A stretch of 64,000 nucleotides of DNA from NCBI GenBank assembly GCA_017503375.1, contig JAFVTF010000001.1:13322-77321 (forward strand), read 5' to 3'. The position numbers were made by a program, and so were the translations under genes. Source of the DNA: Lentisphaeria bacterium (lineage in GTDB: Bacteria; Verrucomicrobiota; Lentisphaeria; Victivallales; UBA1829). This document shows, one piece after another, positions 8,755 through 50,625 of the stretch. The notes beneath the pieces are model-generated. The model worked only from the letters and a program-made list of their open reading frames with translations, was not told the origin of the DNA and did not search any database. Numbering within the stretch: the first letter of the stretch is position 1; every line of letters begins with the position of its first letter.

Positions 8755-11700
8755 TTATTTCAAAACAAAAGACATTTCTTTTTGCAATCCGGAAACAATA
8801 TCCCGGACTTTTATCTTCCATTCTCCGCAAACATCATTCAGTGCCGGGATAAATTTATATTCCCCTTTTCCGTTGGGGAGATAGATATTTTTGGTATAAT
8901 GATCAACCTCTTTATTTTCCGGTGAAATGATTGTAATTCTGACACTCTGCGGCTGATTTTTCATGCGTATGGAACACTTGAATTCTTCACCCCGTTTGAT
9001 GATAGACGGCACAACGATTTCCGGTGCAGTGATCTTTTCCGGCATAGAGGCGATCAATGCTGCATAACCGCGTTCAATACCGATTTCAGCAACATTGCCG
9101 TAACCGAGATATTTCTGATTGAGAACATCATAAAGATGTCCGTTAAACAGCATCGGAATCTTTACGATATGACGGGATGAACTTTCATTGAGATTTTTGT
9201 CAAAAAGTACACCGGCATAAGCCGCATTCCGGTCAGAGAACCGCATTACTTTTGTCTTTGCAAAGGGAATATCATCATTATCCGTTACAACTTTGAATGC
9301 CGGGAAATTGAGATGACGTGTGAACAAGTTGCGGAAAAATTCTCTGATATCAGACTCCTGATTATATTTTCTGAGTTCAAAATATTCATAGAAGTCAAAA
9401 TTCAGATAAAGGGTTTTGCCCTTTCCGTAACTGTTGATCCGGAAGACGTTCTCGCCGGAATCAGAGATCCCGGCTGCGGTATCGGGTGCAACGCCTTTAC
9501 CGACAAAATTCACGGGGTATCTGAAATAGGTTATCCAGTCGCCCATTCCGGTATCAACCTGAATATTTTCCATTTTATGTTTGACCGTAAAGGGATATTT
9601 CTGTCTGATTCCGAAAAGATCATCCAGAACGCCGGTTTTACGGAAATTACAGTTTTGGTAACGGATCCCCGTCCGGTAATCTGCAATGACGATACCGCCT
9701 TTCTGAACAAATTTTTTGATTTCGTCGGCTTCTTTATCAGAAAGAGCTTCAACGAACGGAAGAACCAGCATCCGGTAGGAGTTCAATGCTCCACTTGCAA
9801 TCTCTTTCCCGTCGATCACAGCAAAATCCAGGTTCAGATCTTTCAGCAGTGCGGCAAAGGATTTGAACGCCGGTGCATAGTGTCCGGCAGGAGCATGATT
9901 CCCCCACATATTTCTGAAATCCGGCTCTTTTCCGATCACTTTCTTACTCGGGATCCGGTTCCATTGGATCCTGTCTGCCCCCAGACAGTTTACATGATTG
10001 CCCAGATTTGCAGACAAGGTTGAAGCGTGGAAATTATCTGCGGAATAATAAATTGCGACAGAGGGTTTCTGCGGCACAGCATTTCTCAGAAGTGTTGCGG
10101 GACCACTTTTGATTTTACGGACTTCACGGGCTGCAGCTGCAAAAATCTTATTTTCCCTGAGATAATAATCCAGAGGGGAATTTTCATGTTCAATGATCGT
10201 TGCATGCCACCACCAGAGACTGTTCATTCCGGAGAACAGGGTTTCCCAGGGAACGGTACGTAAACCTGTTGGATAATCAATTCCATTCATCCAGAATCCG
10301 ATAAGATTCTTTCCCGCCGCAAAAGAACGCATGGCGTAACCATTGAAAATCTTATTTGCAAGCATCTTGTCATTGAATGAACGGGCGTAAACGTTGTTCA
10401 TGTCAAACGATTTTGTATAATTATACCAGTCATAACCATCATAGCTGGAAAATTGTTCGCTGCCTTCAAATCCGACAAATACCTCAGGATCTATTTTCTT
10501 GATAGCATCTTTCAATTCCCGCTGACGCTGAATAAAAAGAGTGGAAATAAAATTACGGTAATCTCTCCAACATGCCGGACGTTCGTAAGAGAACATCTGA
10601 GATTCGGAATCAAATTTGATCTCGTTCCAATTTTTGAAATTCCTGTTCCATGCGGAATTCAATTCCTGCAGAGAACTGTACACTTTCTGCAAATATTTCC
10701 GGAATTCGCGCCATGCCTGTTCCGTATTGCTGAAACGCCCCTCAATGACAAAAGGTGTCACATAATTTTCATCCCCGAGAGAATGGGCCAATGTTCCATA
10801 CCGTTTTCCGAGCTGCGCAGCTTTCACTGCAGATTCCATATCTTTGCTGAGTCTCTTTTCATCAAGGAGTCTGCTGATCCGGCTCTGATGGAACGCTGCG
10901 GTGTACGGAATGGAAGATAAGTTTGCCTTTGCCGTCAGCCGGAGCAGATTCTCACTCGGACTCATATTTGAGAATGCATCAATTCCGGATTTTTTCAGCA
11001 ATTTGAGATATTCTCTGTGACGTGAAGAATCGCCGATACTTCCGTTCCATGCAATGAAATAAAAATCCTGATTGCGGGGATTGAACGGGATCGTAAATTC
11101 AACAGTCGCCCGGTTGATCAGATTCCCTTTTTTATCGTAATAACAGATCTCTGCAATGTTGACCGGGGTAATGGAACCGGTCGGAAAATCCAGCTCGATG
11201 GTTTCCGGTGTTCCGGTGAATGTTTTCTGAATATTAACCCTGCCGTAAGTATCACGGACAAATGCTTTGACACTTCCTCCGGAACTGTTTTTTCTGTAAG
11301 AAATCGCGATTTTGATGGGACTCCCCTTCTTTGCATCCGGGGAGGAAAGAAGTTTTGCACCGGAAATTCCCTGATCATACTTCCTCTCAAAAACAGAACC
11401 GGTCTGTCGGATAATACAACCGTTTTCATCACAGCTGCGATTCAGAACGAAATATTTTCCTTCCGGCAGGTTATCCGTATGTTCAAAAACCTTTCCTGCG
11501 GAATCAAAGACTCTTGTCCGGACAGTTTTGACCGTTTTTTCCTGTGTCTGTATCACAGAACGGAGCAGTTCCGCCTGACGCGCCGTGGCATAATCAAACT
11601 CGCCCTGACTGCAGTTCGGGGCATAGAATCCGAATCTGAAATCAATGAATGAGGGCTGAACAAGAACTTTTCCTTTTCCGTACTGATAAATCTCAAAATT

Positions 11701-12210
11701 GAATCTGTCCTTTTTATCATATTTCTTGAAATCAAACTTCAGAGAAGTCTTCTTCCATTTCCGGCTCAGCAAATCTTTCAGATCTTTATCCGGAGCGATG
11801 AGGGAAAGCACCATACCATCTTCAACATTCTGCAGGATCTTATTCTGCACGCTCTTCGGATAGAGCTTCCACGCCGGACTCTGGGTCATAATCATGATCT
11901 CAGGCGACCGCCCCAGATGATGAAGAAGCTCTTTTTCAATATCAGCTTCTGTTCTGAACGCATCGAGCCAGTAGAAACTTCTCTGGAAAAAATTCTGTCC
12001 GCGGTTATCCAGCAGAGAACCGCCCATGGGACAACGTGTGATTTCAAAAAATCCACTCTTTTCCAGATCGTTGCAATCACGCAATCCTCCGTAAAAACCG
12101 ATCGCCAAAACTTTGATTTTCGGTGAAGAACATTCCATTACGGTAGAACATCCGCAAAGAATCACAAAAATACTTGTAATGAGTAATGATAAAGCTTTTT
12201 TCATGTTCAT
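8755..12210 (-). CDS. large secreted putative glycoside hydrolase (GH42-middle-domain-like segment)
   Basis: 1151 aa with signal peptide MNMKKALSLLITSIFVILCGC. Segment YRMLVLPFVEALSDKEADEIKKFVQKGGIVIADYRTG resembles the beta-galactosidase trimerisation/middle domain. The function call is tentative. Confidence 0.7.
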   Translation of the reverse strand: MNMKKALSLLITSIFVILCGCSTVMECSSPKIKVLAIGFYGGLRDCNDLEKSGFFEITRCPMGGSLLDNRGQNFFQRSFYWLDAFRTEADIEKELLHHLGRSPEIMIMTQSPAWKLYPKSVQNKILQNVEDGMVLSLIAPDKDLKDLLSRKWKKTSLKFDFKKYDKKDRFNFEIYQYGKGKVLVQPSFIDFRFGFYAPNCSQGEFDYATARQAELLRSVIQTQEKTVKTVRTRVFDSAGKVFEHTDNLPEGKYFVLNRSCDENGCIIRQTGSVFERKYDQGISGAKLLSSPDAKKGSPIKIAISYRKNSSGGSVKAFVRDTYGRVNIQKTFTGTPETIELDFPTGSITPVNIAEICYYDKKGNLINRATVEFTIPFNPRNQDFYFIAWNGSIGDSSRHREYLKLLKKSGIDAFSNMSPSENLLRLTAKANLSSIPYTAAFHQSRISRLLDEKRLSKDMESAVKAAQLGKRYGTLAHSLGDENYVTPFVIEGRFSNTEQAWREFRKYLQKVYSSLQELNSAWNRNFKNWNEIKFDSESQMFSYERPACWRDYRNFISTLFIQRQRELKDAIKKIDPEVFVGFEGSEQFSSYDGYDWYNYTKSFDMNNVYARSFNDKMLANKIFNGYAMRSFAAGKNLIGFWMNGIDYPTGLRTVPWETLFSGMNSLWWWHATIIEHENSPLDYYLRENKIFAAAAREVRKIKSGPATLLRNAVPQKPSVAIYYSADNFHASTLSANLGNHVNCLGADRIQWNRIPSKKVIGKEPDFRNMWGNHAPAGHYAPAFKSFAALLKDLNLDFAVIDGKEIASGALNSYRMLVLPFVEALSDKEADEIKKFVQKGGIVIADYRTGIRYQNCNFRKTGVLDDLFGIRQKYPFTVKHKMENIQVDTGMGDWITYFRYPVNFVGKGVAPDTAAGISDSGENVFRINSYGKGKTLYLNFDFYEYFELRKYNQESDIREFFRNLFTRHLNFPAFKVVTDNDDIPFAKTKVMRFSDRNAAYAGVLFDKNLNESSSRHIVKIPMLFNGHLYDVLNQKYLGYGNVAEIGIERGYAALIASMPEKITAPEIVVPSIIKRGEEFKCSIRMKNQPQSVRITIISPENKEVDHYTKNIYLPNGKGEYKFIPALNDVCGEWKIKVRDIVSGLQKEMSFVLK

Positions 12211-12216
12211 TCCTTC

Positions 12217-13926
12217 TTATTCAGCGTTCAAGTTATAACCGTAAAATGCTGCAGGAGCAAGATTTTTGCGGAATACACCGCTGCCATTGTAAAGTTTGAA
12301 ATGCAGATAACATTGACTCAGCGGTTTTTCTGAGCTGAATTCCACTGTAACCGTCTGATTTCTCTTTGAATGATCGCTGGTTTTCCAGACAGGATTTTTG
12401 CCGTCAGCGGAAATTCCGAATGTGACATACGCATTCCAGCTGCTCTTGTTCGCATGACAGGGAACCTGCAAGATTATATTTTTGACCGGAGTCCCATTAA
12501 AAACGATCTTTTGAGATGCCTCCCAGGTGGTGGAAGAACCTTTCTTACCGAAAATACTGATATTTCCCGGTCTGATCGACAGATTTTTCATATCTGATGT
12601 GGTATTGATCGTGGAGAGGAAAAGGTTCTGCTGCAGCCGTTCCTGATAGAAATATTTCCCCTGACTGTCAGCGGAAACGGTCAACTGTTTTTCTGCAGAC
12701 GGAGTACCGGCAACTTCAAGTGACAATGTTTTCAAATCGGCATTATCAGATTTGATTGTCATATAAAATTTTCCGGTTTTTGCTGCGGGGAAAGAAAGTT
12801 TCCTGTTATTTTCAGCTTTTTTGAATTGGTATTTTTTGCCGTCAAAGGAAATGCCGACTTCTATATTTCCTGCAAAATTGAGCGTAACTCCGATCTCTTT
12901 CAATTTATCCGGGGAATCAAAACGATATCCGACCGTTGCAGCCCCCTTAAATTTCAAACCGTCATTGCTCAGTTTCAGGTTTCGTGTATTCTTGATCAGA
13001 ACACGGTCAACAAACCCGGAATTGTCAAATTTACAGAAATATTTGAACACGCCGTCTGCAGGAATTATGAAGATATTTTCAGGATAGGAAAGAACCGGAG
13101 CTGCAAATTTTTTGGAGAAAAGTCCATCGAAAAATTTACGCATTTCAGGGAACGGAGCCTTATTGCTCCGGTAACAATTTACACTTCCATGCTTTTTACA
13201 TACAGCGAAAAGAAAAACCGGAAGATCCAGATCCTGACAGATTGCGAATTTCTCTTCAGCATTTTTTTTGATCGCATTCCATCCGGCTTTGTAATAACCA
13301 TCCAGTCCGGCTTCTGCTGCCCAGATTATGGGATAAACCGGGGTTCCCGTCAAAACAAATTTCTGTGTATGACGGTAAAAATCTTCCCCCTTTTTGCCGT
13401 AAGCATCATAAACCCAGCCATCTGCTTTCAGACGGGAATCCGGCGGAAGCGGTTCCGAAAGCCACTGAAATACAGGGACATTCCATTTTTTCTTTACCGT
13501 ATCATAAATATGATTCAGAACAGGGACATCACGTCCTACATTCTCTTCGGAAGCGACAACTGCGTAAACAAGCTCAGGATATGTCTGAACACCCGGAGAA
13601 CTCTCAAATAAAACTTTGAATTGTTCCTCAACATCTTCAATTGCGGGAAGACGTCTGCCTTTTACCTTTTTGTCAAATATGATTTCAAAAATCACATATT
13701 TCCGTTTTCCCTCATTGACCTCTTTTTTATGATTTTCCCAAAATATCCGCTTTTTTTCGGGGTCACGTAAAGATTTCAGATTGACTTTCAAAATTCCATT
13801 TTCATCCACCCAGGCATAATAACCATGAACTTTGTTATCCGGCATGACATTGCGAAGTGCAGAAATATCAACAGCTTTCAGAGAAAAAATCAAACAGAAT
13901 GTTATGAACAATAAAATTTTTTTCAT
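12217..13926 (-). CDS. secreted hypothetical protein
   Basis: 569 aa with signal peptide MKKILLFITFCLIFSLKA. 6-nt gap to the downstream gene and 11 nt from the upstream pseudopilin gene. Confidence 0.7.
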   Translation of the reverse strand: MKKILLFITFCLIFSLKAVDISALRNVMPDNKVHGYYAWVDENGILKVNLKSLRDPEKKRIFWENHKKEVNEGKRKYVIFEIIFDKKVKGRRLPAIEDVEEQFKVLFESSPGVQTYPELVYAVVASEENVGRDVPVLNHIYDTVKKKWNVPVFQWLSEPLPPDSRLKADGWVYDAYGKKGEDFYRHTQKFVLTGTPVYPIIWAAEAGLDGYYKAGWNAIKKNAEEKFAICQDLDLPVFLFAVCKKHGSVNCYRSNKAPFPEMRKFFDGLFSKKFAAPVLSYPENIFIIPADGVFKYFCKFDNSGFVDRVLIKNTRNLKLSNDGLKFKGAATVGYRFDSPDKLKEIGVTLNFAGNIEVGISFDGKKYQFKKAENNRKLSFPAAKTGKFYMTIKSDNADLKTLSLEVAGTPSAEKQLTVSADSQGKYFYQERLQQNLFLSTINTTSDMKNLSIRPGNISIFGKKGSSTTWEASQKIVFNGTPVKNIILQVPCHANKSSWNAYVTFGISADGKNPVWKTSDHSKRNQTVTVEFSSEKPLSQCYLHFKLYNGSGVFRKNLAPAAFYGYNLNAE

Positions 13927-13937: not shown

Positions 13938-14645
13938 TTATTTCAAATATTCATTAAGTTTTGAAAAAGCTGTACGCAAATGACTACCGTGTAATACGAT
14001 ACTTGCGCTTGAAGAACGCTGATTGATCCAGTCACGGAAATCCTGCCTGACTTTTATGACTCCGCTTCCGCCGCTGTATGTCACATGCGGGACATGATAA
14101 CCGTGAAACATGGCTGGTTTGTAAGTATCTGTTTCCAATCTGCAGGTAATCATTACTGTTGAACTCGGTTTTTGCACCTTTTCCAATTTATACGGAATCG
14201 TCTCTCCGGGAACACCGCTCCACACATTTCCGGAGGAATATTTTATACCACATCCTTCAAATGCGTGCATGTGATAGTGCGAGGCAAATGTTATTGAATT
14301 ATCATCATCTTTCGGACACATCAATACCGATGCCGGTCTTGTCTTTTGCAATGATCCCAAATACCCCAATGATGCGATCCGGAACAATCCATAAGGTCTT
14401 GTGTGACTTGCTGTATGATAAATCCCCGGATTATCCTTACTGTATACGGCGATGTTGCCGTCACTGTCCATTGAATACATGGCAACACCGGTATAATTCT
14501 GTTTCAATCTGCCGATACAGTTTGAAATAAAACCTTTGTCACGTGCATTGTTCAATGCCGGCAGCAGCATTCCTGCAAGTATTGCTATTATCGCAATCAC
14601 TACCAAAAGTTCAATTAAGGTAAAGCTACGTCTCATAACATACAT
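13938..14645 (-). CDS. prepilin-type N-terminal domain protein (DUF1559/H-X9-DG family, degenerate C-terminal motif)
   Basis: [38 protein letters not shown]. First gene of the 3-gene operon. No SD upstream in the present sequence. Confidence 0.85.
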
Positions 14646-15169: not shown

Positions 15170-15379
15170 TTGTTCGAGGCAAATCAATTCTCTACTCCTT
15201 CGTTGTCAACAGTTGTGCAGGATTCCAGGGAAATGGGACGTTATGCAGGAGAGCTGCTTTACAGGATTTGTACCGGAATGATTTCCCGGGAAGCCGCAGT
15301 TGAGGAAGCAAGAAATCACCAGATCCCTGTTCAGATCAAAGAATGGGAATCCACCGGATCTCCTGTTTTGTCCCGGTGA
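15170..15379 (+). pseudogene. C-terminal remnant of a LacI-family regulator
   Basis: 69-aa TTG-started ORF ..PSLSTVVQDSREMGRYAGELLYRI...IPVQIKEWESTG matches only the last ~70 aa pattern of LacI/PurR-type regulators (P.LTTV.Q....G..A..LL, L..ReST). The HTH and most of the sugar-binding domain are absent. It abuts MITE-like copy A. Confidence 0.55.
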
Positions 15380-22374: not shown

Positions 22375-23178
22375 TCAAAGATGAAATTTTTTCTGATTCC
22401 GCTGTTTCCAATGAAAGAGGGCTGCGGAAGAGGAAAAACCAAGTTCATAGGCCATTTCTTTCAGAGAAAAATTCTGTTTTGCGGTGATTTTGAAATAGCG
22501 GTCGACACGTTTCCGTAATAAATATTCCCGGAAGACCATTCCGGTGTATTCTGTGAATCTGCGCTGGAAATGCACTTTACTGTATCCAGCCAGAAGTGCT
22601 AAAGAGTCCAGGGTGCAGTTCAAGCTGGGCATTTTATCAATATAGTCAAGGATTTTTTCCATGATTTCGTGCTGTGCATTACGAAACGGGAATTTTTTTT
22701 CTTTTTCAGCAGACCTCAGAAAATGATTGATCAGAACTGTTATGATATGTCCGATTTCATCCGTTGCCTCTTCGTTTTCCGAAATATTCAGTTCATTCCA
22801 TATATGATATATAAAATCATTAAAGGAACCCATGGAAACGATTTCAGAACTGGCAATTTTATTTTCCTGCCAAAGATGGATTCTCAGCATATCGGTCCAG
22901 AAAGAGCCCCACCAAAAGACAGCGTTCGGGTCCGGATAATGACCTTCTGTATGCTGTTCCATGGAATCCAGCAGGACGATATCACCTGCATTCAATTGAA
23001 AACATTTATTTTTCAGTTTGAATGTACAATTTCCGGAAATGACTGCCATAATTTCCCGGAAATCATGTTTATGATGTTTATTTCTCAGCCATTCCATGGT
23101 GATCGGTTCAATATTTTTTATATGATCCGGAGAGGTTTCCGCAGTAACGATGCGTCCGGAAAAATGAAATTTCAACAT
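22375..23178 (-). CDS. AraC-family transcriptional regulator
   Basis: Cupin-like N-terminus and C-terminal double HTH (..LAGYSKVHFQRRFTEYTGMVFREYL..MAYELGFSSSAALFHWK). Start placed at Met21 (CAT 23176-23178). Confidence 0.85.
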   Translation of the reverse strand: MLKFHFSGRIVTAETSPDHIKNIEPITMEWLRNKHHKHDFREIMAVISGNCTFKLKNKCFQLNAGDIVLLDSMEQHTEGHYPDPNAVFWWGSFWTDMLRIHLWQENKIASSEIVSMGSFNDFIYHIWNELNISENEEATDEIGHIITVLINHFLRSAEKEKKFPFRNAQHEIMEKILDYIDKMPSLNCTLDSLALLAGYSKVHFQRRFTEYTGMVFREYLLRKRVDRYFKITAKQNFSLKEMAYELGFSSSAALFHWKQRNQKKFHL

Positions 23179-23328
23179 ATTTTCCACCTTTCTTTTCGGT
23201 ATGATATGTTCAATCATGAAAATGATATATATAATCAATACTTTTCATATATTTTACATTGTTTTTTGAAAAAATCAAGTTATTTTTTAAGAAAGAACCC
23301 TATAAAAACAACTATGAGGAGAGAAAAA

Positions 23329-36539: not shown

Positions 36540-37631
36540 TTATTTTATGGTTGAAAGTATGCGTGCAATGACCGGGGCAGTCCGGCGGGAGATATGATAA
36601 AATCCGAGGTCTGTTGCATGAACTCCGTCTACGGTACATTCCGAAGGATCAGGACCATAGAGTGTGCTGCCGTCGAGGAAATGAATGTTTTGATCACCCA
36701 TTTTGCGGCGGCGTTCCAGTTCATTGATATGAATTGAGGTAAAATCCCGGCGGATCGGAACAAATTCCAGATCTCCTGCGATTTCTGCAGCATAGAGCAG
36801 ACGGGAAATCAGAAGGATTGGTGTTTCCGGGTGCGTTTCCCGCAAAATATCAATAAATCCCGGCAAATTTTGCCGAAGCCGTCCGACACCTGCATTTGCA
36901 TCGAAGTCCAAAACAAACATGGCGGGATCTTTGACTTTTGCCATGATATGCGCCATTTCCGGTTCCCCGTTGGCACTGCCGGAAAAACCGAGATTCACAA
37001 ACGGTCTGTTCAGCAAACGGCTCATGATATTCGTATGGCACATTCCCGGACGGCTGGCGCATCCGCCCTGCTGAATACTTGTCCCGTAAACAACGATCGG
37101 ACGGGGATCGATCCATGGTTCCGGTTCAGCAATGACAGAGCCGCATGTCAGACCGATTTCAAATTCTTCCGGATGAGCATACAGCGGAAAGTGAATCGTA
37201 AATTCCCGCATTTTTTTCTCCATTCCCGGACCGAATATGATGGAGGTATATTCATTTTCCTGGCAGTTGAACCGTGCGGTTTTATGGTAAAATTTAGCGG
37301 TTCCGCTGCCTGTATAAAGGTCAACGCCCATGTAAGCGGTACATGGCATGTGATCCCATCGGTCCACTTTTTCATAACGGACATGAACTCTGATTTCTGC
37401 GGCATCAGACTTGAAGCGGAGCATGCAGCCAGCAGTATGCCATGAGAGATAATCCACAGCTTCGGTTACATGAGCATCCAAAGGAATCCGGCGGAAGGGC
37501 TCTCCTGCCTTGCGCCAGTGAAGCCCGTCAAGATGAAAGCCCGGAGTATCCGCAGAATACCAGTCCATCCCATCTCGGGTGATGCTTTTGTGATCCATAT
37601 CTTTATCGTATTTTCTGACACCTTCAGACAT
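36540..37631 (-). CDS. SGNH/GDSL-family hydrolase (esterase)
   Basis: IVVYGTSIQQGGCASRPG (block I Ser) and VNLGFSGSANGE, with an N-terminal beta-sandwich extension. No signal peptide seen. Confidence 0.7.
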   Translation of the reverse strand: MSEGVRKYDKDMDHKSITRDGMDWYSADTPGFHLDGLHWRKAGEPFRRIPLDAHVTEAVDYLSWHTAGCMLRFKSDAAEIRVHVRYEKVDRWDHMPCTAYMGVDLYTGSGTAKFYHKTARFNCQENEYTSIIFGPGMEKKMREFTIHFPLYAHPEEFEIGLTCGSVIAEPEPWIDPRPIVVYGTSIQQGGCASRPGMCHTNIMSRLLNRPFVNLGFSGSANGEPEMAHIMAKVKDPAMFVLDFDANAGVGRLRQNLPGFIDILRETHPETPILLISRLLYAAEIAGDLEFVPIRRDFTSIHINELERRRKMGDQNIHFLDGSTLYGPDPSECTVDGVHATDLGFYHISRRTAPVIARILSTIK

Positions 37632-42224: not shown

Positions 42225-43046
42225 ATGATAGATAGAGATAATGTTATCAGTATTCTCAGGCATGGTGTAACAAAAATTTACACGCGTTTTTCACAGCCTG
42301 CCAATCAGGAACTGTGCAAAAAATATCATCACAGCTCCCATCCTTCCCGCGAATTTCTCTTTGTAATATCCGGCGAAAGCTTTTATATGTGCAACAACAG
42401 CGTTTATCATTGCTCTCCCGGGACTTTGTTTCTGATCGATTCCGGAATGGTTCACGGGCATCGTTATACGCTGGAAGACAATAATTTACTGCATATCTGG
42501 GGCTTTTTTCATGAAAGACAGGTTCATCTGACTGCAATGGAAGTAACGGTCAACGGTCAGGCTAATGCCGTTCGCGGAATGTCCCGAATCATGATCCCGG
42601 AAGGACTGCAAACCCAGTTCGAGGAACGCTGGAATTTGCTCTCTCAATTGAAACATGCAACAGATCAGGATGTGGAACGGTATATCAAGATACCCGTAAA
42701 CGCCGTATTGGACGAAATGGCATTCCGGCTGGCGGAACAAATGGAGAATACTGCAGAACACACAAAAATGGGCGATCTGCAGACATACATCCGGGCTAGG
42801 AACGGACGGGAGTGCTCTCTCGCCCGGCTGGCTGAAATATCAGGTTATACACGGGGATATCTCGCTCATAAATTTCATGATGAAGTCGGCATCACCATCG
42901 GAACATTCATTGACAAAGTCCGTTTGGAATATACCCGTCTGGCACAAAAAAGGGGAATCAGGCAAAAAGAGATCGCCTATGAACTCGGCTTTTCCTCTCC
43001 GGCGGCATTCTGGAATTGGCTGCATAAACACAGCAATCAAAAGTAA
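42225..43046 (+). CDS. AraC-family transcriptional regulator
   Basis: Cupin-like N-terminus and C-terminal HTH pair (LAEISGYTRGYLAHKFHDEVGITIGTFI..IAYELGFSSPAAFWNW). Divergent from the degT paralog 2 operon. Confidence 0.85.
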   Translation: MIDRDNVISILRHGVTKIYTRFSQPANQELCKKYHHSSHPSREFLFVISGESFYMCNNSVYHCSPGTLFLIDSGMVHGHRYTLEDNNLLHIWGFFHERQVHLTAMEVTVNGQANAVRGMSRIMIPEGLQTQFEERWNLLSQLKHATDQDVERYIKIPVNAVLDEMAFRLAEQMENTAEHTKMGDLQTYIRARNGRECSLARLAEISGYTRGYLAHKFHDEVGITIGTFIDKVRLEYTRLAQKRGIRQKEIAYELGFSSPAAFWNWLHKHSNQK

Positions 43047-43438: not shown

Positions 43439-43458
43439 AGTGATACAAAGTGATACAA
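43439..43458 (+). promoter_or_regulatory. direct-repeat operator (AGTGATACAA x2)
   Basis: Two perfect 10-bp tandem units immediately downstream of the -10. Same motif at 45480-45499. Confidence 0.55.
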
Positions 43459-43485
43459 ACGCATTTTTTTTCAGGAGACTGCACA

Positions 43486-45426
43486 ATGAAACAACTTTTA
43501 GCTGTATTTTCTTGCGCTCTGCTGTTGACCGGCTGTAACGCACCACGCGATTTTTCTATGAAAGATCACCGTATATTCGGAGAGGCTGTACAAAATTATT
43601 ACCAACCGATTTTTGAGGAAAATCTTTGCCGGTATGAAAACAAAATCAATGAAGCAAAAAACAGATCTGATGCACTTCGCCTGATCAGAGAGGCACAGGA
43701 AAGGGTCAGAAAAACATGGAATTTTCCGGCAGAAAAATGTCCGCTTTCAGCTCAGGTGCTGAAAACAGCGTATTATCCGGAGTTCACTGTTGAAAACGTC
43801 ATCTTTAAAAGCCGGGAAAACTTTACTGTTACCGCAAATTTTTATCTTCCCCGCAAACGGGCTGGAAAAGTTCCGGCAGTCCTGTTTGTCCAGGGTCACG
43901 CCAATTCAGGGAAACGCAACGGAACCTATGCAACTGTTTGCGAGAACCTTGCCCGCAGGGGAATCGCGGTTCTTTCAATTGATCCCATCCAGCAGGGCGA
44001 ACGCGATCAATTTCTTCAAACTTTCCGGGGAGACTGTACGTACGGACACAACCGATTGAACCGCCAGCTGCTGGCGATCGGGGAAACCATGTCCGACTGG
44101 AGAACATACGATGGGATCCGCGCCGTTGACTACCTTCTTACCCGTCCGGAAGTGGATGCTTCACGCATTGCCATCAACGGTCAATCCGGCGGAGGAACCA
44201 TGACCGCTCTGATATTTGCAAATGACAAACGGATTATGGCAGCGGCACCCAGCTGCTATATCACAACGTTCTGTTCCAATGTGCAGAACGAACTTGCTGT
44301 TGACGGGGAACAGATCCCGGCAGGGTTCCTTGCTGACGGCGGAGAAATGGCAGATCTGCTTCTTGCCCGTGCGCCCCAGCCTTGCCGGATCCTGGCTCAA
44401 AAAGGAGATTTCTTCGATGTCCGAGGTGCCAGAAAAACCTATGCAATGCTGAAAAAAATCTATACCCTACTGGGGAAAGAAGAAAATATTTCCATGGTAG
44501 AATTTCCGGGAAAACACTCTTATTCTCCGATGAGCCGTTTGGCTGCTTATGAATTTTTCACCTCTGTTTTCGGTTTGAAAAACTTGCCTGAAGAACATCC
44601 GCTTTCCATTGCGCCGCTGTCCTTGAACTGTCTCGGCGAAAAGGGTGTGGCTTCCTTGGAAAACGAAAAGACAGTGTCTCAGATCGCAGCGGAAAAAGCA
44701 AAAAAATTGCGTTTGGAACGCAGAAAAAAACCGCTTTCCAAAGCCCGGATGAAACAGGAGATCGCTTCTCTGCTCAAAGTAGAACCGGTCAAAGGCGTCC
44801 CTGCATACCGCACTTTGCGTATGACTGAAATTGATGGAAAACTCTTCCAGCGCATTGGTATCATGCCGGAGAAATCCATTACAGCGACATTGTTCTGCAT
44901 GGAGCCGAACTATGATTTTGAAATCCGCTGTAATAAAAATGTCACTTTGATGCTGCCGCATATTTCTGCCCGGGAAGAACTTGTACAATACTTTACTCCT
45001 GAAAATATCCGTTCCCTCTTTGCTTTTGATCCCCGTGGGATGGGGGAATCAGAACCCACAACAGTCGAACGGCTGCGCCGTCTTTACTGGGATTACGGTT
45101 CAGATTATCACTACGCTTCTCTGGGGCTGCTGCTGGATCGACCCTATATCGGACGCCGGGTTTATGATATTCTCTGCGCCATTGAACTGCTTTCTGCACA
45201 TGGTGCTGAAAAGATCACGTTGAAAGCCTTCGGTCACAGTCGTTATCTGGCTGTTTATGCAGCACTTCTTTCTGACAAAAAAATCACGCTTGAGCTGGTT
45301 GACGGCTTGCCTGTCACTTACGAAAGAGCCATTTCAGATATGAAAGCACCGATACCTCAGTCAATGGTTCCCTGCGGTATTCTCAAAATTGCGGATATTG
45401 ACGAACTTTACCGCCTGATCCAATAA
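43486..45426 (+). CDS. alpha/beta-hydrolase lipoprotein (acetyl-esterase-like)
   Basis: Start moved to Met13 (SD AGGAG). MKQLLAVFSCALLLTGC lipobox, VPAVLFVQGH, and nucleophile elbow GQSGGG. Confidence 0.75.
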   Translation: MKQLLAVFSCALLLTGCNAPRDFSMKDHRIFGEAVQNYYQPIFEENLCRYENKINEAKNRSDALRLIREAQERVRKTWNFPAEKCPLSAQVLKTAYYPEFTVENVIFKSRENFTVTANFYLPRKRAGKVPAVLFVQGHANSGKRNGTYATVCENLARRGIAVLSIDPIQQGERDQFLQTFRGDCTYGHNRLNRQLLAIGETMSDWRTYDGIRAVDYLLTRPEVDASRIAINGQSGGGTMTALIFANDKRIMAAAPSCYITTFCSNVQNELAVDGEQIPAGFLADGGEMADLLLARAPQPCRILAQKGDFFDVRGARKTYAMLKKIYTLLGKEENISMVEFPGKHSYSPMSRLAAYEFFTSVFGLKNLPEEHPLSIAPLSLNCLGEKGVASLENEKTVSQIAAEKAKKLRLERRKKPLSKARMKQEIASLLKVEPVKGVPAYRTLRMTEIDGKLFQRIGIMPEKSITATLFCMEPNYDFEIRCNKNVTLMLPHISAREELVQYFTPENIRSLFAFDPRGMGESEPTTVERLRRLYWDYGSDYHYASLGLLLDRPYIGRRVYDILCAIELLSAHGAEKITLKAFGHSRYLAVYAALLSDKKITLELVDGLPVTYERAISDMKAPIPQSMVPCGILKIADIDELYRLIQ

Positions 45427-45442: not shown

Positions 45443-45471
45443 TTGACATAAAGAAGAAGTGGATGTATATT
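45443..45471 (+). promoter_or_regulatory. sigma70-type promoter of the GntR/LacI-hybrid regulator gene
   Basis: TTGACA - 17 nt - TATATT. Confidence 0.6.
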
Positions 45472-45479: not shown

Positions 45480-45499
45480 AGTGATACAGAGTGATACCA
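45480..45499 (+). promoter_or_regulatory. direct-repeat operator (AGTGATACAG AGTGATACCA)
   Basis: Two 10-bp tandem units just downstream of the -10. Paralogous to 43439-43458. Confidence 0.55.
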
Positions 45500-45523
45500 A
45501 TTCAATCAAAAAGGAAAAACGGC

Positions 45524-46630
45524 ATGAATAAAAAAAATAATGTTGTTGAACGTTTGCGTGAACTGATTGCATCCGGAAAACTTCAGCCGGGGCAAAAGCT
45601 GGCAAGCGGGATCGAGCTTGCCAACAGTTTCGGCGTAGCACATTTGACCATGCGCCGTGCATTGCGTGAATTGGAACTTGCAGGTGATATAATGATTATT
45701 CACGGCAGAGGCATCTTTGTTTCAGAGCGTCATACAGCTAAGCGTAAATTCCTGATCGTGCGTCCCGGCATAACGGAAAATGCCGTCCCTACCAATTATC
45801 TGCTGCCTTATTTTCTCCAACGCTGTAATGAATTGGGGGTTGAAGTGGACGAAGCAGATTTGATTTTTCTGCGGCACAGTCCGGTTTCCGGAACGGTTCG
45901 CCAGCTGAAAGACAATCAATATACAGGAATTTTGCTTGCCTGCAGCGGATACAACGGAAATGAACCTGAATTGCAGATATTCCGCAAATTGAATGTCCCT
46001 GTTCTCATTCCCCGTGCAACTGAGACCGATTCCGAAGTCACCGGGTTCGGCGTGCTGAGATCTGACGACCGCAAAGCGTGGGAAGACGGTTTGAAATACC
46101 TCAAAGAGTGCGGCTTCAAAAAAGTCGGATTGATTTTTTCCAAGTACAAAAAGGATTCTCTTATACGGGGATTTACTTTTAAGGAGCATTTGTCATTGCT
46201 CAAAAAACATGGCATGAAGAGCGATAAAAACATGATTGGGATAGTTGATATTCAGAATGGCGAAACACTTTGCAGTCAGGTGGGAACATGCTTAAAAATG
46301 CTGATGGAGCAGGAAGAACCGCCCGAAGCGATCTACTGTTTTTCTGACTTCGTTGCCCTTTATGTCTATCTTTCCGCACAAAAAATGGGGTTGCGGATCC
46401 CTGAGGATATTTCTGTCATGGGTTTCTGCGGTTATCCCGGCGGAAAAATGCTCTCCCCGCCGCTTGCCACAGTTGATTGCGATTATCCTGCCGCCGGTAT
46501 TCTGGCAGCAGAACTGCTCTGTGATCCGGGCAAGTGGTGTTACAGTGAAAAGGAAAACAGAGAATTTATTATTCCACATAAAATCAAAAAACGCGCCAGC
46601 GTTGCAGTCAAACAGGAGGTAACACCATGA
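45524..46630 (+). CDS. transcriptional regulator, GntR-type wHTH fused to a LacI-type sugar-binding domain
   Basis: Start at Met12 (MNKKNN). [42 protein letters not shown] is a GntR HTH. The C-terminus (..[22 protein letters not shown]) is Peripla_BP/LacI-like. Confidence 0.8.
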
Positions 46631-46698: not shown

Positions 46699-47478
46699 AT
46701 GAAACAAAATGGCGTGAAGTCTGTGAACTTTACTCTGATCGAACTGCTGGTTGTGATTGCCATCATTGCAATCCTCGCCGGAATGCTCCTGCCCGCCCTG
46801 AACCGGTCACGCGAATCAGCAAGAGGCAGCAGCTGTACCGGCAATTTAAAACAGATCGGCATTATGACCACTTCTTACACCGATGATTTCGATGGCTGGG
46901 TTCTGCCCCATGACTTGCGTTATGCCCTCAACGGAGGAGTGTACGGTAATGAGTCAGATTCTTATGCAGACAAGAACACTTACGGTGCTTATCACCAGAG
47001 ATTGCGGGTGACGGGATATGTTCAGGACTGGAAGAGCGGAAATGTTATGACCAGTGTTTTTGTCTGTCCGTCTGACCGGTCTACCCGAAGTGCTTACGAA
47101 AAATTGCGCTATCAGCTTATTTATGGAATCAGTCTCGGGATCGTTTTTAAAGACAAAGCTACTTTCGGTACTCGCAAAACGGTCAAAATTTCTCAGGTAA
47201 AAAATCCCTCCCGGAAAGCCTACTGTATGGACTCTTCCGGTACAACAGATTATAAATCCCAGTTTTACATGGTCGGCGCAAGCGTTACTCCATCAAGCAA
47301 CAACGGTGCCATTGCTTACGGCAGACACAATAATGTCTGCAATATCCTGAATCTCTCCGGAGGTGTCATGAGAGTCACTGCAAGCAATCTGCTGCACAGC
47401 GTACTTACCAACGGCAGCACCAGCATGGCATGGGATTCTGACAAGGACCGTCTGACCCGTTATTACTGGGGCATGTAA
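46699..47478 (+). CDS. prepilin-type N-terminal domain protein (H-X9-SG variant)
   Basis: [43 protein letters not shown] and C-terminal [12 protein letters not shown]. An alternative ATG at 46627 overlaps the regulator stop (ATGA). Confidence 0.85.
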
Positions 47479-47511
47479 TTGAAATCAAAAAACATAAGGA
47501 TAGAAACTACA

Positions 47512-50500
47512 ATGAAAAAATTATTATTTCTGACACTCGCTGCCGCAGGTGCAGCTCTTTCAGCAAAACCTGTCGTGGAATGGGATTTTGAAAACAATAT
47601 CCCTGCCAAAAATGTAGCGTTCTCAAAGGATAAAAAATACCGTGTGGGCGATGGAAAAATCGTTGCCGGGTTCAAGGGTAACGGGCTGCTCATCAATAAA
47701 GCCTGGCCCCGCACAGCATTAAAAGTTGCGGAAAACTGGAAAAGCTTTACGGTTGAATTGAAGTTCAAACTCAATGAAGAGGTGAATGCACGCACCGGAA
47801 ATACTCTTTTCTGCTATGCAAAGAACTCCTGGAACCGCGCACAGTTCGCTTTGCAGATCACGCCGAAAAAACAGCTGGAAGCACGGTTCACCCAGGTTGT
47901 CCGGAAACAGGAACAGGTTCTGACCTCCAAACAGCTGGATATCAAACCGGGAGTGTTCTATACCGTCCGCATTGCTGCAACTGACGGCGGCATGATGAAA
48001 ATCTTCCTTGACGGCGAACTCGTTGCCATGCGGGAAAAGGATTCCTGGAGCTTCAACCGTCTTTCCACCCCCAAGATTCCCAGCGGTTATCCGCTTCTGG
48101 TGCTGGGAGGAAATCTTGCCGCAATGAAAACGGAATACCGTACACTCAACGGTGTCATTGATGATGTCAAAATCTGGAACACCTTCAAAGAAGCTGATGC
48201 GGCGGCATCCGTTGAAGCAGGCAGTTCTCTGCTGGTGGTTGAAGGAAAAAAAAGTGTGACGGGCAAATTTCTCGTTCTTGACCGTCCAACCCGTTTTCTC
48301 GGCGGCTTTGAACGCCCGGAACAAAAATTTTTTGATGCCGCAGCCAACGCTGAAGTGGAGCTGACCAAAAACGATCTCATCGTCCGGGTCATCTCCCCCA
48401 TCCCTGCCGGAATGAAAGTCGATACAGGAAAGAATCGTACATGGTCAGGAGATGTGGTGGAGTTTTTTTTTCGTCCTGACCTGAACAACGGTGAGTATTT
48501 TCAGTATGCCGCCAACGCTTCCGGATGGACAACTGCTCTTGCTGTCAATTTCCGTGACCGTGGCAAGAAATTCAAGAGCAGCAGCAAAACGGCAATCGAT
48601 ATCAAAGCAGACCGTTGGATCGTCACTTTCACCATTCCCCGCAGTGAATTGCGCCTTGATGGCGATATCAACGGGAAAGTTGTTGCGGCAAATATCACCC
48701 GATGCGGCAAGACTGCCGGCGGTCAATCCACCTGGTCCCCCATCGGCAGCAACTTTCATGCAATCGGAAAATTCCGACAGGTGGTTTTCGGTTCCTACAA
48801 ACAGGCTCTGTTGAAACAGCTTCAGGAAAGCAAAAAGGAATTCAGCTCCATCGACGGCGAAAAAAAACTGAAAGAATCTATTGCAGCCGAACTGGAAAAA
48901 TTGGAAAATGAAGTCAATGTCAACGGTTCCAAAAGCGAATTTTTTGAGGTTCTTTCTGCCAATATTGCCCGCATGAAACTGCGCTACACCCAGCTCCGTT
49001 TTTCAGGAACACCCAATCTTATCTGGCAAACTCCGCTGCCCTGGGGAAATGATATTCAGGTTTCTCCCCTGAGCACTCCTCTGAAAAAAATCTCTCTTGT
49101 TCTGCCGCAGAACAGTTTTGTCTGCCAGAGTTTTGTTTTCAGCAACCTGACACCGAAATCCTTTCTGGGACAAATCAAAATTTTTCCGGCAAAGCGTCTG
49201 CAGGAAAAAAAAGTTTATAACGATTTCAACAGCAAATTCTACGAAACACGCAACGGGATCGTCTGCTATCCGGAAAGCACACTTTACCCCAATGTGCAGT
49301 TTTTTGAAGCCTTGCCCCTTGTTTCCGGCGACACCATCCACGATCCGCTGCTGCCGCTGCCCATGGGAACACTTCTGCGGGCAGGTGCCAATGAATCCAA
49401 ACAAATCTGGTTCAAATTCAGTTCTGCCAACATGAAACCGGGAAAACAGGATTTTGTCATTGTTCTGAAACCCTCTTATCCGGGCTTCCAGAATATTGAA
49501 ATCCCTGTGGAAGTAGATATCCGTCCCGTGGATCTTGGCAAAATAAATGTGGATGCTTTCAACTACACCAATATTTACCGTAACGGGACACATCCGGCAC
49601 TGGTCAAAGCTCTGGTGGATAAAGGAAACAACATCATCTATCCCGGCGGCGCTCTGGGACAGGCTTCTATGGATATTTATCCGAAAATAGATGAGCAGGG
49701 CAATGTGCTGGAATATTCCGACTATGCTTTGATCGACCGGTTCATCGACCGTTCCGTTCAGGCAGGGATGCCCCTGGAACGCATCAAGCTCATCTGCTGG
49801 CTGGAACTGCCCGCTTACGGCATGAATTACCGGGGCAAGCGGCAGGCAAAATTCAATTCCCCGGCATGGAACAAGGGGTTCAAATCCTTCCTGATCCATT
49901 TTACCGATCATCTGAAAAAGAAATACAATATCACCCGTGACCGGATCATCTTCTACACCATTGACGAGCCCGAAGGCGACATCAATAAACCGGGAACCAG
50001 AATGTATAACGCCTATCTGTCAGCAGAAATCATCAAATCTGTCGGCAAAGATTTCGTCACCATGGTCAATCCGCATCCCAATTACCTGCGGGGGAAAGAG
50101 TTCTCTGCCATGACAAAACTGGCAGAAGTTTATGATATTTTTGAATTCTACCGTCCTGGCTTGGGTCCCGAACAGCTCAAGGCTGCCAAGAGTCTCAAAA
50201 AAGAGACCTGGACTTACTGCATCTACGGCAAAAACACTGCTCCGGAAGCTTACCGCCGTACCTACTGGACCAATTTCCGTGACGGCTTTACCGCTGTTTC
50301 TGCCTACTGGCACCACGAAGCTCATGCAGGCGGTGACGGGTTCAACTCTGAAGACGGTGTCAGAAACCGGGTCGACTACGGCAGTGCCTATCTGGATATG
50401 GAAATGGGAACCTATCTTTCTTCCAGACGGGAAGAAGCCAACATGCTTGGCAAAGAGGATTACAAACTGGCGGAGTATTGCCGTCAGATGCTCCAAAAGA

Positions 50501-50625
50501 AACCATCCGCGGCTTTGAAAAAACAGCTGGATGCGATCATTTCCTCAGGTGCTTCCGGTGATATGCAGATCATGGAAGAAAACCGTCTAAAGCTCCTGGA
50601 TCTTGCTGAAAAGCTTTCAAAATAA
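47512..50625 (+). CDS. secreted LamG + CBM9-like + glycoside-hydrolase-like protein
   Basis: Start at Met12 with signal peptide MKKLLFLTLAAAGAALSA. LamG (..IFLDGELVAMRE..VIDDVKIWNTF) and CBM9-like (GDVVEFFFRPD..EYFQYAANASGW). Large C-terminal TIM-barrel-like part. Confidence 0.75.
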   Translation: MKKLLFLTLAAAGAALSAKPVVEWDFENNIPAKNVAFSKDKKYRVGDGKIVAGFKGNGLLINKAWPRTALKVAENWKSFTVELKFKLNEEVNARTGNTLFCYAKNSWNRAQFALQITPKKQLEARFTQVVRKQEQVLTSKQLDIKPGVFYTVRIAATDGGMMKIFLDGELVAMREKDSWSFNRLSTPKIPSGYPLLVLGGNLAAMKTEYRTLNGVIDDVKIWNTFKEADAAASVEAGSSLLVVEGKKSVTGKFLVLDRPTRFLGGFERPEQKFFDAAANAEVELTKNDLIVRVISPIPAGMKVDTGKNRTWSGDVVEFFFRPDLNNGEYFQYAANASGWTTALAVNFRDRGKKFKSSSKTAIDIKADRWIVTFTIPRSELRLDGDINGKVVAANITRCGKTAGGQSTWSPIGSNFHAIGKFRQVVFGSYKQALLKQLQESKKEFSSIDGEKKLKESIAAELEKLENEVNVNGSKSEFFEVLSANIARMKLRYTQLRFSGTPNLIWQTPLPWGNDIQVSPLSTPLKKISLVLPQNSFVCQSFVFSNLTPKSFLGQIKIFPAKRLQEKKVYNDFNSKFYETRNGIVCYPESTLYPNVQFFEALPLVSGDTIHDPLLPLPMGTLLRAGANESKQIWFKFSSANMKPGKQDFVIVLKPSYPGFQNIEIPVEVDIRPVDLGKINVDAFNYTNIYRNGTHPALVKALVDKGNNIIYPGGALGQASMDIYPKIDEQGNVLEYSDYALIDRFIDRSVQAGMPLERIKLICWLELPAYGMNYRGKRQAKFNSPAWNKGFKSFLIHFTDHLKKKYNITRDRIIFYTIDEPEGDINKPGTRMYNAYLSAEIIKSVGKDFVTMVNPHPNYLRGKEFSAMTKLAEVYDIFEFYRPGLGPEQLKAAKSLKKETWTYCIYGKNTAPEAYRRTYWTNFRDGFTAVSAYWHHEAHAGGDGFNSEDGVRNRVDYGSAYLDMEMGTYLSSRREEANMLGKEDYKLAEYCRQMLQKKPSAALKKQLDAIISSGASGDMQIMEENRLKLLDLAEKLSK

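Follow-up and report, generated by a model that had tools for sequence, protein, structure and literature searches.

In a gut-type Lentisphaerota genome, small genes for type-IV-pilin-like proteins are located directly 5' of those for large exported enzymes that degrade carbohydrates. This pairing is no local accident but directional and confined to one lineage, and it offers the first role that can be tested for a very large orphan protein family. Each small gene is best explained as coding for a member of the type IV filament (pilin/pseudopilin) superfamily, as one of its subunits. In the 64,000-nucleotide stretch analysed (the window), four such ORFs were found as a sequence-only reading had described them: pp1 (13938-14645, -), pp2 (26754-27563, +), pp3 (37655-38368, -) and pp4 (46699-47478, +), all with an N-terminal motif ending in (G/A)MLLPAL, which a six-frame scan of the window detected nowhere else. 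All four proteins passed the Pfam N_methyl model, while their GspG scores reached 25-33 bits against a cut-off of 88.85; among the four, only pp3 passed TIGR04294 and only pp4 passed the cut-off of PF07596 (DUF1559), over 29 residues. The H-X9-DG strings reported for two of the small proteins were located in pp2 and pp3.

The distances from the pilin genes to the next genes agreed with the 0-33 nt given earlier, being 11 nt for pp1, 5 nt for pp2 (20 nt if translation starts at ATG 27584), 23 nt for pp3 and 0 nt for pp4 (33 nt from ATG 47512). Every gene directly 3' of a pilin gene in the window has its own AGGA/GGAG-like ribosome-binding site, and gaps of 5-33 nt leave no space for promoters or terminators. 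The downstream proteins also matched their description, with signal-peptide proteins in three modules and a leaderless SGNH esterase followed by a 999-aa protein in the fourth. Within the window, an exported protein of at least 500 aa comes next after three of the four pilin genes as against 2 of 46 other genes (p=0.002). The modules look PUL-like in that a regulator and a pilin gene are grouped with genes for exported enzymes and for cytoplasmic sugar processing. The proposed "pseudopilin-first" order applied to module 1 only, since three genes for cytoplasmic enzymes precede the pilin gene in modules 2 and 3, and a regulator gene does so in module 4. A separate regulator for each module was borne out by two AraC-family proteins and a GntR-LacI hybrid; the fourth, a short ORF near module 1 (15170..15379, +), is a doubtful LacI remnant with a weak resemblance to the C-terminus of LacI-type regulators (alignment E=0.3).

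Module 1 (minus strand) is an operon bounded by a σ70 promoter-like site matching in 12 of 12 positions (TTGACA-17-TATAAT, TG extended; 14814-14786, -), the sole perfect match in the region, and by a strong terminator (8742-8712). Promoter-like sites overall showed no enrichment over shuffles. A 19-nt palindrome, ATAACATA-ATG-TATGTTAT, with a chance expectation of 0 matches, is present in two copies at 14635-14653, overlapping the start codon of pp1, and at 14737-14755, which together form a candidate operator pair. In pp1 (235 aa) a Ser precedes FTLIE and the H-X9-DG motif is not clear. It is followed by an exported 569-aa protein with a signal peptide (12217..13926, -), for which Pfam, NCBIfam and PDB gave no relative, and by a GH42/GH42M-like protein of 1151 aa with a lipoprotein-like leader (LCG-C; 8755..12210, -), the terminator being situated 3' of its gene.

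Module 2 has a divergent AraC-family regulator (22375..23238, -), kept in the orthologous loci L085 and L087, and three cytoplasmic proteins, a DegT-type aminotransferase (23314-24546, +), a ceramidase_alk-like protein (24560-25939, +) and ThuA (25945-26682, +). These precede pp2 (269 aa, Asn at position -1) and an exported DUF4838 and GH67N-like enzyme of 914 aa (27569..30313, +; likely start ATG 27584). Module 3 is similarly arranged, with a divergent AraC-family regulator (42225..43046, +; kept in L093), a DegT aminotransferase (40725-41933, -), an amidohydrolase (39127-40710, -), a xylose-isomerase-like TIM barrel (38386-39126, -), pp3 (237 aa, Arg at -1), the leaderless SGNH esterase (GxDLY and Lipase_GDSL_3; 36540..37631, -) and, 12 nt further, an exported LamG and GH123_N-like enzyme of 999 aa (33528..36527, -). 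When compared with L093, where the GH123-like enzyme directly follows the pilin and the esterase is absent, the esterase gene appears as an insertion between pilin and enzyme. Upstream of module 4 an AXE1-like esterase of 658 aa with a lipoprotein leader (LTG-C; 43450..45426, +) is encoded. The module itself has a regulator with a GntR-HTH and a LacI-type periplasmic-binding fold (45491..46630, +), for which an 11/12 promoter-like site was identified at 45443-45471. Next come pp4 (259 aa, Asn at -1, degenerate H-X9-SG motif) and an exported LamG protein with a weak GH123_cat match (47479..50625, +; an ORF of 1048 aa, or 1037 aa from ATG 47512).

As a first version of the genome-wide check proposed earlier, adjacency was analysed in 79 loci from reference genomes, counting exported proteins of at least 500 aa encoded on the same strand and at most 100 nt 3' of the pilin gene. 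In the Lentisphaerota such a protein followed 14 of 46 pilin genes and 10 of 271 other genes (OR 11.4, p=1.9e-7; the control consisting of neighbouring genes in the pilin-centred loci, genes being called by a crude method and signal peptides by a heuristic one), and when partners within two genes were accepted the counts were 20/46 and 23/271. None of 45 Lentisphaerota pilin genes was preceded by an exported protein of this size. In Verrucomicrobiota and others no adjacency was seen (0/59), showing that it is no general property of H-X9-DG proteins; an excess over other genes, about 11-fold, was obtained for the Lentisphaerota and not for the remaining groups. An exported-enzyme partner was seen for 30-43% of the Lentisphaerota pilin genes, most (57-70%) being without one, and all 19 tightly coupled (at most 40 nt) downstream non-pilin genes encode exported proteins. 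The partners belong to unrelated CAZyme families (GH71, DUF4838, GH42, GH5, PL8, heparinase-like, GH123, GH39, GH78, GH16, DUF6259 and LamG), and the same pairing pattern was present in independently made gene calls of a public collection.

The pilin-like proteins consist of a short basic leader, an invariant FTLIE...P22 alpha1-N helix within a 51-residue alpha1, and a variable head of ~190 residues; an AlphaFold2 model (pLDDT 88, pTM 0.83) gave the 51-residue alpha1 together with a beta-sheet head. Among orthologous modules with a pilin identity of 63-84% the pilin-enzyme pair was kept while the outer flanks differ, and pilin and partner enzyme evolve about equally fast. The heads are only ~30% identical, yet are kept intact. 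The alpha1-N helix is invariant as protein while its DNA carries synonymous differences, indicating selection rather than gene conversion, which would be expected if the helix touches an assembly machine or filament core.

Our best guess, a tentative one, is that the pilin-like protein acts as a cargo adaptor or tether on a type II secretion-type pseudopilus. The Lentisphaerota pilin gene would be co-transcribed with at least one Sec-exported glycan-degrading enzyme and translated just ahead of it, the whole gene set being controlled by a substrate-responsive regulator. The pilin-like protein would enter the inner membrane first, its head would then bind the enzyme emerging into the periplasm, and it would carry or hold the enzyme on a shared pseudopilus with machinery encoded elsewhere in the genome, each exoenzyme module thus supplying its own adaptor or tether. 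The sequences themselves show pilin-like architecture, tightly coupled operons and an enrichment that is directional, lineage-restricted and retained among orthologues; physical contact, filament assembly, a connection with type II secretion (T2SS) and where the enzymes finally end up are what we infer here. In agreement with the sequence-only reading, pilus or T2SS machinery genes were absent among the annotated ORF domains of the window, GspE or A24 peptidase motifs were not found in it, and T2SS genes were not seen near the sampled pilins. [quoted passage not shown] Against the adaptor reading count the missing Gly(-1), the transporter partners, the majority of pilin genes that have no enzyme partner, heads that do not group by enzyme family, and the distance of T2SS genes from the sampled pilins.

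A SusD-like or "bindosome"-like role in glycan capture has some, though a low, probability. The head, presented by a pilus or pseudopilus or held by an inner-membrane anchor, would then bind polysaccharide, or the oligosaccharides released from it, instead of the enzyme, and would pass its ligand to whichever enzyme or transporter is co-expressed. A precedent is well established in Archaea, where sugar-binding proteins with pilin-type signal peptides occur, and the co-regulation of one pilin family with enzymes of many specificities also favours capture. In two loci, L024 and L090, the pilin gene is located 5' of an SSF-type transporter gene (762-763 aa); such a partner is not secretion cargo and suits a binding-protein role better than that of a secretion adaptor. 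Carbohydrate-binding modular pilins exist as well (PMC8179133). However, when the head domain was run through Foldseek against PDB no fold neighbour appeared (best E=2.7, TMq ≤0.12), and no similarity to lectins, CBMs or periplasmic binding proteins was detectable. Nor did the heads group by the enzyme family of the partner (Mantel r=0.035, p=0.30, with low power at such divergence), and hence presumably not by substrate class, and capture gives no specific reason to expect a strictly upstream, tightly coupled pilin gene.

The residue at position -1 bears on whether the proteins are processed at all. Gly(-1), to our knowledge needed by every characterised prepilin peptidase, is absent in all four window proteins, and in 37 of 41 sampled Lentisphaerota members (~90%) it is replaced by R, N, S, K, Q and others, as against G or A in 47 of 48 members of other phyla, so that cleavage, and hence filament assembly, is uncertain and the processing implied by the label "pseudopilin" cannot be assumed. 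Since residue -1 and adjacency to enzyme genes divide at the same lineage boundary, and transporters are found among the partners, the protein could be a never processed or polymerised, bitopic inner-membrane anchor with a periplasmic head organising co-expressed periplasmic enzymes near membrane and transporters. We consider this rather unlikely, as a plain anchor needs neither an invariant F1, E5 and P22 nor purifying selection on the whole alpha1-N, the conservation of which suggests contact with pilin-handling machinery, and as polysaccharide induces T2SS genes in the phylum. That any paralog could replace another as pseudopilus or pilus subunit, with no specific partnership and a place in glycan operons only to raise secretion or adhesion capacity upon exoenzyme induction, would agree with the lack of co-clustering, the many pilin genes without enzyme partner and the co-induced T2SS genes, but is improbable because co-regulation alone needs neither the strict direction (0/45 upstream) nor the 5-40 nt coupling, because the divergent heads stay intact and change about as fast as the partner enzyme, and because the pair outlasts gain or loss of an intervening gene.

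Among the closest known systems are the H-X9-DG/DUF1559 prepilin-type proteins of the PVC superphylum (TIGR04294; PF07596, "SBP_bac_10"), which share the N-terminal helix, the length of ~230-270 aa, the conserved Cys pair, the C-terminal H...DG hairpin and the massive paralogy. At least 7989 relatives were counted among 8000 scored candidates, and Planctopirus limnophila has 68 paralogues (PMC10632474). The Lentisphaerota branch differs in being without Gly(-1) and coupled to exported CAZyme genes, the sampled Verrucomicrobiota having neither feature. In planctomycete papers the family is called "solute-binding" from the Pfam name alone; a binding-protein fold was not detectable in the present analysis.

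With the PULs of Bacteroidota the modules share a substrate-responsive regulator, a recurrent non-catalytic marker, variable exported CAZymes, cytoplasmic sugar-processing genes and many units per genome. The marker is here a pilin-like protein and not SusC/SusD, and the suggested likeness to SusC/D pairing holds as analogy only, domains of TonB-dependent transporters and SusD not being found in the window. In the modular type IV pilins PilB and PilC of Streptococcus sanguinis a pilin module gives ligand specificity, also for carbohydrates (PMC8179133), whereas here the LamG, CBM9 or catalytic domain is not fused but located on a separate downstream polypeptide.

The pseudopilins of T2SS (GspG, GspH-K) have in common with the window proteins a class III leader-like N-terminus, F+1, E+5, a long alpha1 and a beta-sheet head, and close relatives are annotated as "type II secretion system protein" by annotation pipelines. 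They differ from the proteins described here, in which the ~190-aa head has no fold match to solved pseudopilins, Gly(-1) is missing and the genes are found in glycan operons, not in a gsp operon. We are aware of no classical T2SS in which substrate-specific pseudopilins have their genes beside that of the substrate. A pilin serving as adaptor for a secreted protein of the same operon is known from CofB-CofJ, and in such type IVb minor pilins (CofB-CofJ of ETEC, TcpB/TcpF of Vibrio cholerae) pilin and secreted partner share an operon (PMC8179133). Those pairs are located inside the pilus machinery operon, one per system, and concern colonisation factors, while the Lentisphaerota pairs occur in dozens per genome, remote from the machinery, with large glycan-degrading enzymes as partners.

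The four small ORFs singled out by the sequence-only reading were recovered at exactly the positions it gave, pp1 (13938-14645, minus strand), pp2 (26754-27563, plus strand), pp3 (37655-38368, minus strand) and pp4 (46699-47478, plus strand), each with an N-terminal helix motif ending in (G/A)MLLPAL, and a six-frame scan of the 64 kb for this motif matched these four and nothing else. Domain searches and leader predictions also agreed with its description of the downstream genes in all four modules, as the gene groups around pp1-pp4 are called here. In module 1, pp1 is followed by a 569-aa exported protein (i.e. one with a predicted signal peptide) without known domain and a 1151-aa GH42-like protein; in module 2, pp2 by a 914-aa DUF4838/GH67N-like protein; in module 3, pp3 by a leaderless SGNH esterase and, after a 12-nt gap, a LamG/GH123_N protein of 999 aa; and in module 4, pp4 by a LamG protein of 1048 aa that matches GH123_cat weakly. 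Each module had been assigned one regulator, of which the two AraC genes and the GntR-LacI hybrid could be confirmed while the LacI remnant is weak. The proposed "pseudopilin-first" order is true of module 1 only, since a DegT aminotransferase gene lies ahead of both pp2 and pp3, joined by a ceramidase-like gene and ThuA in the first case and by amidohydrolase and TIM-barrel genes in the second, and pp4 is preceded by the regulator gene. The invariant feature is the location of the pilin gene immediately upstream of the exported enzymes, not first place in the operon.

The module 1 operon (pp1 and the genes for the 569-aa and 1151-aa proteins) is bracketed by a perfect TTGACA-17-TATAAT promoter-like site upstream of pp1 (14814-14786) and a terminator with a 12-bp stem 3' of the 1151-aa gene (8742-8712), both consensus matches only. 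The junctions measure 5-33 nt, lack terminators and each carry an AGGA/GGAG-like ribosome-binding site of their own, which makes the predicted co-transcription of the pilin genes with the genes downstream very likely. A 19-nt palindrome, ATAACATA-ATG-TATGTTAT, is present in two exact copies (0 expected by chance), one overlapping the start codon of pp1 (14635-14653) and one between the 12/12 promoter-like site and pp1 (14737-14755); the two may serve as operators, although the LacI-type gene alongside is no more than a remnant.

When analysing the rest of the window, a DegT/DnrJ-type aminotransferase was seen in both modules 2 and 3 (23314-25939 and 38386-41933), adjoining ceramidase-like, amidohydrolase, TIM-barrel and GH123-like genes. 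This aminotransferase family is usually tied to biosynthesis; its setting here points to the breakdown of glycoconjugates that contain amino sugars or GalNAc. Two divergent IS110-family transposase genes with 25% mutual identity lie between modules 2 and 3 (30383-31552, minus strand, and 31966-33042, plus strand), a 51-nt unit is repeated perfectly in tandem (two copies, 50837-50938) in non-coding DNA just downstream of the module 4 enzyme, and at 51071-51751 (minus strand) an exported protein of 226 aa that matches LamG weakly is encoded on its own, with no pilin gene ahead of it. No Pfam match was obtained for the ORFs at 12217-13926(-), 7070-8032(-), 8178-8690(+), 52322-53047(+) and 58490-59542(+), the first of which, the 569-aa partner of pp1, is also without sequence relatives in NCBIfam or the PDB, and the PDB sequence search with the partner enzymes gave very distant relatives or none. 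As the earlier reading had noted, no domain or motif of pilus or T2SS machinery is found anywhere in the window; a motif scan for T2SS/T4P ATPases and prepilin peptidases was negative both here and in the sampled Lentisphaerota loci, and no window ORF carries the Pfam domains of SusC-like TonB-dependent transporters or of SusD.

The adjacency of pilin and exported protein was examined in 79 loci holding family members, taken from a scan of one genome per species and comprising 32 loci from Lentisphaerota (Victivallales, Lentisphaeria), with most of the rest from Verrucomicrobiota. Taxon labels were taken from the deposited MAG records, genes were predicted with a home-made caller and exported proteins with a heuristic signal-peptide test, pilin and control genes were treated alike with the pilin ORFs forced in, and the other genes of these pilin-centred loci served as controls. 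The window organism has no close representative in this genome set (best pilin match 35% identical), its relatives of 84-99% identity being found in metagenomes. The event counted was a same-strand exported protein of at least 500 aa within 100 nt downstream. In Lentisphaerota it was observed as the next gene for 14/46 pilins and 10/271 other genes (OR 11.4, p=1.9e-7) and within two genes for 20/46 and 23/271 (OR 8.3, p=2.9e-8), while the reverse order was found for 0/45 pilins and 9/258 others. Outside this phylum the next-gene counts were 0/59 and 5/544 (p=1), and within the window itself 3/4 and 2/46 (p=0.002). Adjacency above chance, which the reading had anticipated, is thus present in the Lentisphaerota loci, where one third to less than half of the pilin genes show it, and absent from the loci of other phyla. 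Of the non-pilin genes that lie no more than 40 nt after a pilin gene in Lentisphaerota, all 19 encode exported proteins.

The partners are drawn from many unrelated families, in the sampled loci GH71+LamG, DUF4838 (three cases), GH42+CBM, GH5+CBM9, PL8, heparinase II/III-like, GH123+LamG and DUF6259 proteins together with LamG proteins and a small polysaccharide lyase; a public collection with independent gene calls and precomputed Pfam matches added pilin genes followed by GH39/CBM9, GH78, GH16+CBM6 and a 1466-aa GH2/GH42-like protein. Among further arrangements, a sodium:solute-symporter-family membrane protein of 762-763 aa follows the pilin in two Lentisphaerota loci (L024:827-3115, minus strand, and L090:10834-13125, plus strand; gaps of 151 and 113 nt), a LamG protein of 257 aa stands alone between the pilin and a 1128-aa exported protein in locus L027, and a small lipoprotein-like gene (124-146 aa) takes the place of an enzyme after the pilin in several loci from outside Lentisphaerota (L029:4895-5269, L045:10584-10985 and L051:10687-11127). 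The idea that pilin-preceded enzymes are without lipoprotein anchors and other exported enzymes with them was rejected (lipobox in 0/19 and 1/26, respectively).

Comparison with orthologous modules revealed that specific pairs are retained. Two orthologues of pp2 (84% and 63% identity; loci L085 and L087) keep the AraC, DegT, ceramidase-like, pilin and DUF4838 genes with differing outer flanks and without the ThuA gene, situated at 25945-26682 in the window. For pp3, one orthologue (72% identity) retains the TIM barrel, pilin, SGNH esterase and LamG/GH123_N gene, and in another (74% identity, L093:5578-7788) a GH123-like enzyme (56% identical) begins 33 nt after the pilin with no esterase. The leaderless SGNH esterase of the window (36540-37631, minus strand), the one exception there to a pilin directly followed by an exported protein, is thus an insertion into a pilin-enzyme pair. 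Identities between orthologous modules were 65-84% for the pilins, 72-77% for the partner enzymes and 86-91% for the cytoplasmic proteins; on these figures, divergence of the pilins is roughly as fast as that of the partner enzymes and exceeds that of the module's cytoplasmic genes.

All four proteins score above the cut-offs of Pfam PF07963 (N_methyl; 21.5-31.9 bits, cut-off 21.2) and NCBIfam TIGR02532 (21.6-26.3 bits, cut-off 16.3), and with the GspG equivalog TIGR01710 (cut-off 88.85) they reach only 25.2-32.6 bits over the N-terminal 45-60 residues. Their membership of the two H-X9-DG-related families is partial. The C-terminal H-X9-DG motif, previously ascribed to two of the proteins, is literal in pp2 and pp3, while pp4 has H-X9-SG and pp1 no clear motif; TIGR04294, the model for this motif, is passed by pp3 alone (23.0 bits, cut-off 19) and its profile search did not report pp2 despite the literal motif. 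DUF1559 (Pfam PF07596, "SBP_bac_10") is passed by pp4 alone, with 28.7 bits (cut-off 23.3) over 29 residues (profile positions 3-31 of 268), whereas pp2 stays below the cut-off at 17.1 bits and pp1 and pp3 show no match; many relatives carry precomputed PF07596 matches. Outside the helix pp1-pp4 are ~30% identical to one another and have a Cys pair in common. Recent duplication of a module was ruled out on this divergence and on the module 3 and 4 enzymes being unrelated by BLAST.

The hydrophobic alpha1-N helix of ~20 residues, together with Phe +1 and Glu +5, is invariant in both alignments made of the pilin-like proteins. Its protein sequence is the same across paralogues and its DNA differs at synonymous sites, by which gene conversion as the origin of the identical helices was ruled out. 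Judged from these sequences, the identity indicates strong purifying selection, of the type expected for a helix contacting pilin-handling machinery or a filament core.

Taken together, gene order, tight coupling, direction, exclusively exported partners, a pair that outlives gain or loss of an intervening gene and machinery-grade conservation of alpha1-N argue for an adaptor or tether, a reading we hold tentatively, as possible rather than probable. The pilin-like protein would be made first and inserted in the inner membrane, would engage the enzyme leaving Sec, and the enzyme would then be carried or held on a shared T2SS-type pseudopilus with machinery encoded elsewhere. CofB-CofJ provides a precedent for a pilin acting as adaptor of a secreted protein (PMC8179133), and the T2SS genes induced by laminarin in Lentisphaerae strains (PMC11361711) are consistent with the same reading.

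The pilin-like protein was modelled with AlphaFold2 using 110 relatives (pLDDT 88, pTM 0.83). The predicted structure has an alpha1 helix of 51 residues (15-65) followed by a six-strand sheet with loops, and H-X9-DG makes up the final beta-hairpin, whose turn is DG. Foldseek aligned alpha1 only to solved type IV pilins (gonococcal, PAK and FimA; E 0.17-0.5), a PDB sequence search with the family profile matched the N-terminal helix and nothing beyond, and a head-only model (pLDDT 88, pTM 0.87) gave no fold neighbour in the PDB (best E=2.7, TMq at most 0.12). By profile and fold pp1-pp4 belong to the prepilin-type superfamily, although they lack Gly at -1. A pilin that itself captures glycan is an unlikely alternative; the modelled head is not detectably lectin-like, nor is it GspG-like or solute-binding-protein-like. 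The periplasmic-binding-protein fold that the name "SBP_bac_10" implies was not found with the head-only model, and the "solute-binding protein" label in planctomycete papers derives from the Pfam identifier alone.

Characterised prepilin peptidases require Gly at -1 and tolerate Ala poorly. In pp1-pp4, FTLIE is preceded by S, N, R and N, respectively (sites 14586-14627, 26820-26861, 38294-38335 and 46726-46767). Among relatives sampled in loci L006-L084, G or A occupies this position in 4/41 from Lentisphaerota versus 47/48 from Verrucomicrobiota and others, the remaining Lentisphaerota proteins having R, N, S, K, Q or another residue. The lineage in which pilins are paired with enzymes has thus also lost the canonical Gly(-1), with F+1 and E+5 kept. 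This raises the question of how, or whether, such pilins are processed and bears directly on mechanism: either the peptidase has relaxed specificity or the proteins stay uncleaved in the inner membrane. The latter could make them organisers of periplasmic enzymes, an explanation to which we give little credence even with the missing glycine; contact with pilin-handling machinery is what the invariant alpha1-N helix is taken to suggest.

Counted against the adaptor or tether reading are, besides the missing Gly(-1), the pilin-transporter pairs, the many unpaired pilin genes and the fact that heads do not co-cluster with enzyme families; a mirror-tree comparison of 22 pairs found pilin-head and partner-enzyme similarity uncorrelated (Mantel r=0.035, p=0.30), at low power with most heads sharing ~25 bits. 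That the pilins are a generic, co-regulated supply of subunits is improbable, the pairing having a fixed direction and a tight coupling that co-regulation alone would not need.

The adaptor reading can be extended to the T2SS itself, whose substrate recognition is a long-standing problem, and to the processing of pilins, in which Gly(-1) is otherwise universal. Under this doubtful extension, Lentisphaerota would answer the recognition problem with an own adaptor for each exoenzyme module, a fast-evolving pilin made before its enzyme, loading it onto the shared pseudopilus so that it is either exported or displayed on surface filaments induced by polysaccharide, and pilins would be processed without Gly(-1). 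Pili bearing enzymes might then be among the polysaccharide-induced filaments reported around Lentisphaerae cells, and the adaptor reading, if true, would represent a new way of specifying cargo for a type II secretion-type machine.

The H-X9-DG/DUF1559 proteins and their expansion are already known, the family, with dozens to hundreds of copies in a genome, being among the largest paralogous ones of PVC bacteria, and we know of no function demonstrated for it. Our literature search found no paper linking these proteins to CAZyme genes and none on directional coupling to exported CAZymes or loss of Gly(-1) in Lentisphaerota. The phylum-specific, directional coupling makes the function of the family open to concrete and cheap experiments and offers a marker for glycan-utilisation loci in Lentisphaerota, which lack SusC/D. 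When given laminarin or starch, the Lentisphaerae strains WC36 and zth2 form cell-associated filaments 0.4-8 um in length, read by the authors as filamentous phage, and the same treatment raises expression of T2SS genes, among them "type II secretion system protein" (PMC11361711). The latter is the pipeline annotation name for the pilin-like proteins studied here, and we pose as a question whether some of these filaments might be pili.

When compared with known systems, the window modules differ from a Bacteroidota-type PUL, which has adjacent genes for a SusC-like TonB-dependent transporter and a SusD-like protein, both absent here, and their pilin-like proteins are not equivalogs of GspG, the major pseudopilin of the T2SS. 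In type IVb pili of the CofB-CofJ type the pair is located inside the pilus assembly operon, whereas in the window and the sampled loci no assembly genes are nearby; in both, the secreted partner is encoded in the operon of the pilin. By analogy, the closest functional counterparts would be the minor-pilin adaptors of type IVb pili and modular lectin-bearing pilins.
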